Shown: one piece after another, positions 6,195 through 7,164 of the stretch
How the letters are laid out: every line of letters starts with the position of its first letter
Position numbering within the stretch: the first letter of the stretch is position 1
Source: a virus
Taxonomy: Duplodnaviria > Heunggongvirae > Uroviricota > Caudoviricetes
Reading direction: 5' to 3' (one strand)
DNA length: 11,676 bases
IMG/VR virus record: IMGVR_UViG_2740892258_000014
Position numbers and translations under genes: made by a program
Notes under the pieces: generated by a model
Database searches by the model: none
Told to the model about the DNA's origin: nothing
The model's input: the letters and a program-made list of their open reading frames with translations, nothing else

Positions 6195-6545
6195 ATGAGT
6201 GAAGTAACAGATTTAGTTGTTATTGAAAAAGCAAATGCAATGACTGTATTTCAGTCTGCCGACCAGATTGAAGAAATTCTCCAAAAGGTTGAACGTGAAG
6301 TTATGTCATTTGTGCCTGATATCACAACGGCAAAGGGCAGAAAGGAGATCGCTTCTCTGGCGTATAAAGTTGCGCAGACGAAAACATATCTCGATGGTCT
6401 TGGCAAAGACCTTGTTGCTGAACTGAAGGAAATTCCAAAGCTAATTGATGCCAACCGCAAGACAGTGCGCGATCGCCTTGATGAACTGAAAGCCAAGGCG
6501 CGCCAGCCTCTTACTGATTATGAGGAAGAATCAGGCGCGGATTAA
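6195..6545 (+). CDS. Hypothetical protein (116 aa), upstream partner of the E/R/K-rich ORF
   Basis: Preferred start ATG 6195 with GGAGG SD 5 nt upstream (the track ORF starts at 6099 but that stretch contains a hairpin plus T8 run at 6155-6182). 3' end overlaps the next ORF by 26 nt in a different frame. Confidence 0.55.
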   Translation: MSEVTDLVVIEKANAMTVFQSADQIEEILQKVEREVMSFVPDITTAKGRKEIASLAYKVAQTKTYLDGLGKDLVAELKEIPKLIDANRKTVRDRLDELKAKARQPLTDYEEESGAD

Positions 6546-7164
6546 AGCCGAAGAAGAAGCTAAGGCAGCAGCTGAAGCTCTCGCAAAGCAAATTGAGTCT
6601 GACCATGAAATAGCGATTTTGATGGATCGCGAATTTGACCGCCAAAGAGAAGAGGCAAGACTCAAAGCGGAGCAGGAAAAGCGAGAGCATGAAGAACGAT
6701 TAAAAAGAGAAGCTGAAGAGAAAGCCAGAGCAGAAGCCGAAGCAAAGGCAAAAGCCGAAATTGAAGCAGCAGCAAGGCGAGAAGCAGAAGCTAAGGCCGC
6801 AGCGGAACGTGCAGAGCGTGAACGCATTGAAGCCGAGCAACGAGCACAGCGCGAAGCAAAAGAGGCAGCAGAACGAGCTGAAAGAGAAAAGCAGGCAGCA
6901 ATTGAAGCAGAACGCAGAAAAGCACAGGAGGAGGCTGAACGAATCCGTCGCGAGGCTGAAGCAAAAGAGCAAGCCAGAATAGCAGAAGAAAAAAGAATCA
7001 AGGACGAAGAAGAGCGTAGAGCAAAGGATAAAGCTCACCGGAAAGAAGTAAATAACAAAATACTTGCTGACCTTATCAAGGTTGGCGCATCAGAAGATGT
7101 TGCTAAAAATATCATAACAGCCATCGTAAAAGGCGAAGTATTCGCAACAAAAATAACCTACTAA
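6520..7164 (+). CDS. Highly charged E/R/K/A-rich predicted alpha-helical protein (214 aa) with a short hydrophobic C-terminal domain
   Basis: About 150 residues of EAEAKAKAE/ERAERER-type sequence, then ILADLIKVGASEDVAKNIITAIVKGEVFATKITY; no SD at its ATG, so translation may be coupled to, or frameshifted from, the upstream ORF. Confidence 0.5.
   Translation: MRKNQARIKAEEEAKAAAEALAKQIESDHEIAILMDREFDRQREEARLKAEQEKREHEERLKREAEEKARAEAEAKAKAEIEAAARREAEAKAAAERAERERIEAEQRAQREAKEAAERAEREKQAAIEAERRKAQEEAERIRREAEAKEQARIAEEKRIKDEEERRAKDKAHRKEVNNKILADLIKVGASEDVAKNIITAIVKGEVFATKITY

Follow-up and report, generated by a model that had tools for sequence, protein, structure and literature searches.

A single-base insertion divides the CUS-3 copy of Sf6 gene 33, a member of a large phage gene family found beside recombination modules

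Two overlapping ORFs at positions 6195..7164 of the window (the whole 11,676-nt stretch of IMG/VR record IMGVR_UViG_2740892258_000014 that was analyzed) are very likely the remains of one gene. We identify this gene as the CUS-3/UTI89 copy of Sf6 gene 33 (PHROG 1376, homologous to phi80 agt), broken by a recent and lineage-specific insertion of T6531, with an intact protein that may be an accessory modulator of phage recombination (Rec) modules. The feature is real and its explanation is ordinary: one inserted base has shifted the reading frame of a common accessory gene of phages. The frameshift itself is already annotated: in RefSeq/PGAP, a single CDS named "cell envelope biogenesis protein TolA" spans 6195..7164 and is flagged as a frameshifted pseudogene; the older GenBank record of CUS-3 has two hypothetical proteins at this place.

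[quoted passage not shown] The plus strand of the window has the orientation of the early-left (pL) operon, in which the genes are ordered as N, ral, a 140-aa ORF, a terminator, the gene at 6195..7164, cIII, kil, small ORFs, erf, a 127-aa ORF, and abc2 (Table 1); the view in the earlier note that an early phage gene is concerned was thereby borne out. The hairpin that precedes the gene occupies a position homologous to that of the Sf6 regulatory feature tL2A, and with N antitermination the pL transcripts would be expected to read through it into the gene.

Table 1. Coordinates of the features discussed, numbered from the first nucleotide of the window
Feature	Position	Strand	Remarks
Intrinsic-terminator-like hairpin and T8 run	6153..6182	+	Stem 6153-6174, 8 pairs, then TTTTTTTT; directly upstream of the gene
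Shine-Dalgarno sequence GGAGG	6186..6190	+	4 nt 5′ of the true start, ATG 6195
ORF1, truncated product, 116 aa	6195..6545	+	Residues 1-112 correspond to the N-terminal helical-bundle domain of the Sf6 gp33/phi80 Agt family
ORF2 as called, 214 aa	6520..7164	+	Only 6532..7164 corresponds to ancestral codons 113-322
Lesion, one inserted T	6531	+	GAAGAA-T-CAGGCG; missing from Sf6, phiv205-1, Bas106, and 470 of 508 E. coli loci
Antisense ORFs	6531..7001 and 6700..7038	-	Non-coding; a result of coding DNA that is rich in purines and poor in T
DNA encoding the ER/K-type charged helix	6676..7035	+	Ancestral residues 161-280
C-terminal domain of ~42 residues (HRKEVNNKILADLIKVGASEDVAKNIITAIVKGEVFATKITY) and stop codon	7036..7164	+	Conserved family-wide
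cIII	7189..7320	+	Directly downstream of the gene at 6195..7164
kil	7305..7457	+	Downstream of the gene at 6195..7164
Recombination module	7714..9022	+	Erf, 127-aa ORF, and Abc2
Erf	7714..8319	+	PF04404
127-aa ORF	8319..8702	+	Unassigned; between Erf and Abc2
Abc2, anti-RecBCD protein	8726..9022	+	PF11043

The two ORFs are halves of one gene

The geometry given in the earlier note was reproduced in full: the coordinates of the two ORFs were as described, their overlap is 26 nt (6520-6545), ORF2 is read in the +1 frame with respect to ORF1, and ORF2 is devoid of a Shine-Dalgarno sequence, with no GGAG-like motif detected in the 15 nt 5′ of its ATG (CAGCCTCTTACTGATT). The N terminus encoded by ORF1, MSEVTDL, is kept across the family in the alignments. 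When the junction of the window and of CUS-3 was aligned with those of Sf6 gene 33, phiv205-1, and Bas106, the split was found to have an exact cause, namely, one inserted nucleotide that none of the close relatives has. Removal of T6531 in silico restored a 322-aa ORF, the product of which is identical to Sf6 gp33 (100% amino-acid identity), and the two DNAs were found to differ at 13 sites, all synonymous. The finding that 13 DNA differences have left the proteins identical shows that the intact gene is under strong purifying selection, and the identity of the repaired protein to Sf6 gp33 despite these differences shows that the frameshift is very recent. The earlier proposal of one frameshifted protein is upheld by this restoration and by the fused state of the homologues described below. 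The Sf6 gene 33 protein (NP_958209; PHROG 1376) is the closest known relative, grouped with Orf53 of D3 and Orf53 of IME10; it is encoded at the same locus, between gene 34/tL2A and cIII-kil-erf, by DNA that is 98.6% identical, and differs in that Sf6 has an intact 969-nt ORF where the window has the extra T and two ORFs.

Comparison with PHROGs led to the same reading. ORF1 matched phrog_17211 and the N-terminal part of phrog_1376, ORF2 matched phrog_21365 and the C-terminal part of phrog_1376, and an intact relative matched phrog_1376 with an E-value of 2e-110. The profiles of PHROGs 17211 and 21365 are exactly 116 and 214 positions long, and these two PHROGs are the two parts of a single broken gene. 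The window copy has the full-length homology and the early-operon location at a Rec module that characterize PHROG 1376 and is without the uninterrupted ORF; it is best classified as a disrupted (pseudogene) member of this family.

The consequences for translation would be as follows. Initiation at the Shine-Dalgarno-equipped ATG 6195 would give a 116-aa fragment consisting of the N-domain and four out-of-frame residues (113-116, SGAD), which are followed directly by TAA. The remaining 210 codons, for the long ER/K helix and the C-terminal domain, would be out of frame and either untranslated or translated at a low level through termination-reinitiation at ATG 6520. This ATG arises when GAT-TAT-GAG (D-Y-E), codons that are conserved in the intact genes, is read out of frame, and its use as a start would, judging from sequence, be fortuitous. 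Some activity may reside in the 116-aa fragment or in a reinitiated ORF2 product; the function of the gene has probably been lost in CUS-3. The phage would be able to bear such a loss, the gene being accessory and Abc2 being present as well. CUS-3 is inducible and forms virions, as would fit a non-essential gene. The minus-strand ORFs, which the earlier note had regarded as artefacts, are accounted for by composition: between positions 6540 and 7030, the plus strand is 72.5% purine and 9% T, and two of the three minus-strand frames have 0 to 1 stops per 163 codons.

Distribution of the insertion and alternative explanations

An 80-nt junction probe was used to survey E. coli complete-genome records, 508 of which were matched. 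The match was exact, with the T present, in 38 records, including (i) UTI89 (four assemblies), NU14, IHE3034, APEC O18, PMV-1, and UM146; and (ii) FDAARGOS strains. The T is also in the CUS-3 record from RS218. The other 470 matches were non-exact; among the matches listed, each non-exact one of full length (54 of 55 sampled rows) spans 79 nt and has no T. In IMG/VR, 80 viral contigs (73 distinct alleles) were recovered as close relatives; an intact 969-nt ORF was found in 76, the extra T in none, and other lesions in the remaining four (a stop at codon 20, n = 3; a 1-nt deletion, n = 1). At a wider distance, 80 loci from 80 bacterial species were compared, and in at least 76 the N-domain and the C-terminal motif lie within one ORF (290-453 aa). 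The two-ORF arrangement was detected neither in the other species of these 80 loci nor in the IMG/VR relatives. Phage phiv205-1 carries an independent nonsense mutation, Q30*, in the same gene, and the gene also occurs as deletion chimeras.

An unlikely alternative is that the locus is split and still functional, with both halves made as coupled polypeptides (ORF2 by reinitiation at ATG 6520) or with an N-terminal fragment that is active alone, altered, or dominant-negative. In keeping with it, ATG 6520 sits 23 nt upstream of the ORF1 stop, inside the range described for reinitiation through back-scanning in E. coli, a process reportedly documented by Adhin and van Duin in 1990; the allele is unchanged in 38 complete genomes; and neither half has amino-acid changes relative to Sf6 gp33. 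This absence of further changes is, however, equally expected from a very recent clonal mutation, and ORF2 has no Shine-Dalgarno sequence. Its ATG, being formed from D-Y-E codons present in every intact relative, has not evolved as a start. In addition, at least 76 of the 80 species, and all sampled clades, have the domains joined covalently in one protein, and other prophages have plainly inactivating lesions in this gene (Q30*, the stop at codon 20, and deletion chimeras). Two coupled genes, one of the options of the earlier note, are not the natural state of this locus.

It is highly improbable that the full-length protein is made from the two ORFs through a programmed +1 ribosomal frameshift or through transcriptional slippage. 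The geometry of the locus (a short overlap, the +1 frame, and an ORF2 without a Shine-Dalgarno sequence) speaks for it; however, GAA-GAA-TCA-GGC-GCG-GAT-TAA permits no +1 P-site re-pairing and offers no homopolymer for slippage. When the overlap (TAT-GAG-GAA-GAA-TCA-GGC-GCG-GAT-TAA) was scanned, no X-XXY-YYZ motif, CUU-UGA-type site, hungry-codon motif, or homopolymer was detected. Programmed shifts are conserved among relatives, whereas the two-ORF form is confined to one lineage (38/508 E. coli records); a programmed shift is therefore effectively refuted, since the arrangement is unconserved and the overlap has neither a shift-prone motif nor a homopolymer. A sequencing or assembly error in a gene that is really intact can be given equally little credence: although single-base indels are the commonest assembly error, the identical 80-nt junction recurs in 38 complete-genome records, assembled independently and drawn from numerous strains and projects, and the T lies at a site outside any homopolymer. 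Both of these causes had been raised in the earlier note. The preferred reading is a real, lineage-specific insertion in a single gene.

Architecture of the intact protein

In family alignments, the intact protein has a conserved domain at each end, the N-domain of ~112 aa and the C-domain of ~42 aa, and between them a charged helix that varies in length. The N-domain would consist of three helices and be followed by a charged helical spacer, ~170-200 residues long and variable in length, and by the small C-domain; the helix would serve as a spacer between two binding domains. The E/R/K/A-rich composition reported earlier was confirmed, as these residues and Q make up 86% of residues 111-280 of the repaired protein. 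Of residues 161-280, 62% are charged and 28% are Ala, and large hydrophobics make up only 6%; opposite-charge pairs number 0.40 per residue at i/i+4 versus 0.17 at i/i+3, and large hydrophobics occupy the heptad a/d positions at 0.1-0.2 in the best register. By these statistics, the helix appears to be of the ER/K single-alpha-helix (SAH) type and not a canonical coiled coil. It resembles the ER/K SAH domains of myosin X/VI, caldesmon, and Arl13B-type charged helices in being charge-rich, in its dominant i/i+4 opposite-charge pattern, in having almost no heptad hydrophobic seam, and in being predicted as a continuous helix. The likeness is incomplete, as the Ala content is above that of classic SAHs and the AlphaFold2 (AF2) prediction has a break at 209-212, where indels also occur, which makes a helical hairpin possible.

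Structure prediction, suggested earlier as a check, returned long helices: AF2 model 1 has a helix at 69-295 and model 2 has helices at 81-208 and 213-295, with pLDDT values of 52-80 over residues 190-280. Near-identical relatives have proteins of 245-333 aa because of in-frame indels of 11-48 residues, which were found to cluster near residues 200-215. The predicted break and the indel cluster could mark the tip of a hairpin, or merely a hotspot of repeat slippage; by tandem-repeat analysis, the helix-coding DNA has weak hexamer periodicity only. The tolerance of the helix to changes in length argues against a strict molecular ruler, a role that had been put forward for it and that is a poor fit to these variants. 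The C-terminal domain, noted earlier as short and hydrophobic, was found to be a small hydrophobic domain formed by the last 42 residues, with the family-wide motif HR..N...L...G.....A...I..G.I....I.Y.

Database searches with the intact protein and 26 diverse members gave no match in Pfam and no family in NCBIfam or PADLOC. A sequence-profile search of the PDB returned charged-helix look-alikes only, the best match of the family profile being an Arl13B/ARF-like GTPase (E ~1e-4, helical region only); the other matches were non-significant and likewise confined to the helix. Foldseek comparison of model 1 with the PDB gave nothing at E <= 0.001, the structure searches overall gave generic helical-bundle matches only, and the BFVD structure search returned only members of the same family.

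Size of the family and its genomic company

The N-domain was used as a phmmer query against 1.84 billion cluster representatives (50%-identity clusters). At E <= 1e-3, the gp33/Agt family was found to comprise at least 4,849 clusters, and 3,257 were still matched at E <= 1e-10. Among the best matches, the N-domain begins within residues 1-33 of proteins that are mostly 280-430 aa long. A charged helix in a phage early protein, thought unusual in the earlier note, is thus part of the architecture that defines a very large family. A search for homologues with the 112-aa N-domain retrieved short or truncated proteins only, and the full-length query recovered full-length relatives.

The neighborhoods of 79 species-level loci were examined. 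A homologue of Erf, Bet/RecT, or an exonuclease was present within 4 kb on the same strand in 70 loci, and in 53 the annealing protein starts less than 1 kb downstream of the family gene. Downstream genes at the remaining loci match AAA_24 (Sak4-like), YqaJ, DUF3799 nuclease, SSB, or RecT. The association with Rec modules holds across at least three unrelated recombinase families. In annotated phages, adjacency to a Rec module was found in ten host genera (Shigella, Escherichia, Pseudomonas, Vibrio, Klebsiella, Iodobacter, Sinorhizobium, Acinetobacter, Alcaligenes, and Yersinia). With X as the family gene, the order is (i) X-gamL-bet/recT-exo in phi80 and a Klebsiella phage; (ii) X-Erf/Bet-exonuclease in D3, PP9W2, phiLM21, Piluca, and an Acinetobacter phage; (iii) recE-recT-X-rdgC in PhiPLPE; (iv) erf-ssb-X in Vibrio V039C; and (v) X-cIII-(kil)-erf-ssb/abc in Sf6, CUS-3, and a Yersinia phage. 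GamL lies beside the family gene in 9 of the 79 loci, and no GamL homologue was found in the window. In enterobacterial phages, the family gene co-occurs with GamL or Abc2 and does not replace them. An apparent link to Abc2, through a protein of the set matching PF11043 (P0016), was rejected, as this protein is a deletion chimera of N-domain residues 1-80 and an Abc2 C-terminus; BLASTP comparison of the N-domain with Abc2 gave no match.

Possible function of the intact protein

Phi80 Agt is the sole family member that has been studied. The Agt/Mog protein of phi80 (Lula; YP_007947961) is 322 aa long and 51% identical to the repaired protein over its full length (E = 2e-63), and it has the same N-domain, helix, and C-domain. 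Its gene, too, belongs to the pL operon and immediately precedes the Rec module; the difference is that gamL-recT-exo comes next in phi80 and cIII-kil-erf-abc2 comes next in the window. In GenBank, Agt is annotated as "anti-toxin for Gam" and Mog (modifier of Gam), and the neighboring gamL as "toxic without Mog." Work by Rotman and colleagues in 2012 reportedly established GamL as an inhibitor of RecBCD and SbcCD and agt as its antidote or modifier, the lysogens being phenocopies of recD and sbcCD. Literature searches for GamL and Agt retrieved nothing further on Agt. A later paper that cites this work, by Sinha et al., confirms that such recD and sbcCD phenocopies had been described for phi80 lysogens and states that they were not reproduced in MG1655.

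The intact protein would be a conserved accessory part of phage Rec modules, its gene being cotranscribed just upstream of a single-strand annealing protein and exonuclease, whichever recombinase family these belong to. Because phi80 Agt is annotated as the antidote or modifier of a RecBCD/SbcCD inhibitor, the protein would most likely tune phage recombination or anti-nuclease proteins against host nucleases. An antidote of GamL cannot be the general function, since GamL is at few of the loci and is absent from the window. From these comparisons, we tentatively favor a general role in modulating the interface of recombination and anti-nuclease proteins with the host over that of a dedicated GamL antidote. 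A broader proposal is more doubtful: gp33/Agt could be a widespread, unrecognized core accessory part of Rec modules, a two-headed protein with an ER/K spacer or hairpin that, whatever the recombinase family, couples the annealing protein, the exonuclease, or the anti-nuclease machinery to host RecBCD/SbcCD or tunes their interplay. If so, the CUS-3 allele would be a natural knockout. In a 2025 survey covering lambdoid Rec modules (PMC12315714), neither Agt nor a like protein is mentioned among the module members; there, lambda Gam and P22 Abc1/Arf are described as non-essential and accessory, a property that the family would share. It shares with lambda Gam the operon slot directly upstream of the annealing protein, and differs from both Gam and Abc1/Arf in that no sequence or fold similarity was detected.

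Implications for annotation and for phage recombination

The value of the frameshift finding lies mainly in annotation hygiene, as it bears on the "hypothetical proteins" of CUS-3 and on PHROGs 17211 and 21365, through which artefacts of the split ORF have entered that resource. Of greater use is what came to light beside it, a very large family that has no Pfam model and travels with Erf, RecT/Bet, and Sak4-type modules in phages of Gamma-, Beta-, and Alphaproteobacteria. The single genetic characterization, that of phi80 Agt, ties this family to the control of a RecBCD/SbcCD inhibitor; should the same be true of the family at large, it would bear on phage recombination and the evasion of host nucleases, and possibly on better recombineering.

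A wrong "TolA" label has spread over hundreds of genomes. The name was given in PGAP and in several phage records because of a shared composition, a long Ala/Glu/Lys/Arg-rich helical segment being present in both this protein and TolA domain II. To that extent, the description "TolA-like" in the earlier note was accurate; the remaining hallmarks of TolA were not found. The maximum Kyte-Doolittle mean over 19 residues is 1.03, at residue 293, and the N terminus (MSEVTDLVVIEK) is charged, so that the protein has no transmembrane anchor like that of TolA. Pfam revealed no TolA C-terminal domain in 26 members. Against the NCBIfam TolA models, the E. coli protein (P0068) gave no match, and a distant member scored 25.6 bits against a cutoff of 213, over the helix only. 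The gp33/Agt protein is a cytoplasmic phage protein of a recombination operon, and the label is spurious. Two further pseudogene remnants, DUF2737 and Ea22-like, are recorded by PGAP in the window, a pattern typical of slow prophage decay.

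Conservation and disruption of the gene

When the extra T at 6531 was left out, the gene at 6195..7164 of the window was found to differ from Sf6 gene 33 (1501..2469 of L002, the Sf6 locus) by 13 nucleotides and by no amino acid, which indicates that the protein is under strong purifying selection. This gene is also independently broken in further prophages, as seen in (i) phiv205-1 (L004); (ii) the IMG/VR relatives L080-L082 and L086; and (iii) the proteins P0016, P0022, and P0043. The lesions range from premature stops to a 1-nt deletion and deletion chimeras, and are listed in the table.

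In-frame indels of 11-48 residues were also detected among near-identical relatives, concentrated about residues 200-215 of the intact E. coli protein P0068; this cluster coincides with a break in the AF2 helix at residues 209-212 and may mark either the tip of a hairpin or a site prone to repeat slippage.

Family databases and record labels

Across the family, at least 4,849 clusters at 50% identity are united by the N-domain, for which neither Pfam nor NCBIfam has a model. The record labels "TolA", "colicin import membrane protein", "fibrinogen binding protein", "tail-fiber", and "integrase" are all spurious for this family. The true full-length family is phrog_1376. The profile lengths of PHROG 17211 and 21365 (116 and 214, respectively) are the same as those of the two split ORFs; thus, these entries appear to derive from the frameshifted CUS-3-type allele and not to be real families.

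Other features of the window

Three further ORFs (128, 140, and 127 aa) had no match in Pfam. Exclusion and anti-defence genes are frequent in lambdoid phages at the positions of the first two, and the 140-aa ORF has a terminator-like hairpin of its own directly 3′ (6010-6027). The 127-aa ORF takes the slot held by abc1 in P22. Two more PGAP pseudogene remnants were observed in the same prophage arm.

Features of the window and lesions in related copies of the gene
Feature	Position	Strand	Remark
128-aa gene	window 4545..4934	-	between LexA-family repressor and N, opposite strand
140-aa Sf6 gp34 homologue	window 5583..6005	+	
Indel region	window about 6742..6900		P0068 residues ~183-235; relatives compared
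127-aa ORF	window 8319..8702		between erf and abc2
DUF2737 fragment	window 9037..9120		PGAP pseudogene; N-terminus missing
Ea22-like fragment	window 9990..10244		PGAP pseudogene; C-terminus missing
Q30*	L004 1501..2469		same gene, phiv205-1
Stop	codon 20		same gene, three viral contigs (IMG/VR)
1-nt deletion	near codon 307		same gene, IMG/VR relative
Deletion chimeras			same gene; e.g., N-domain residues 1-80 joined to Abc2 C-terminus
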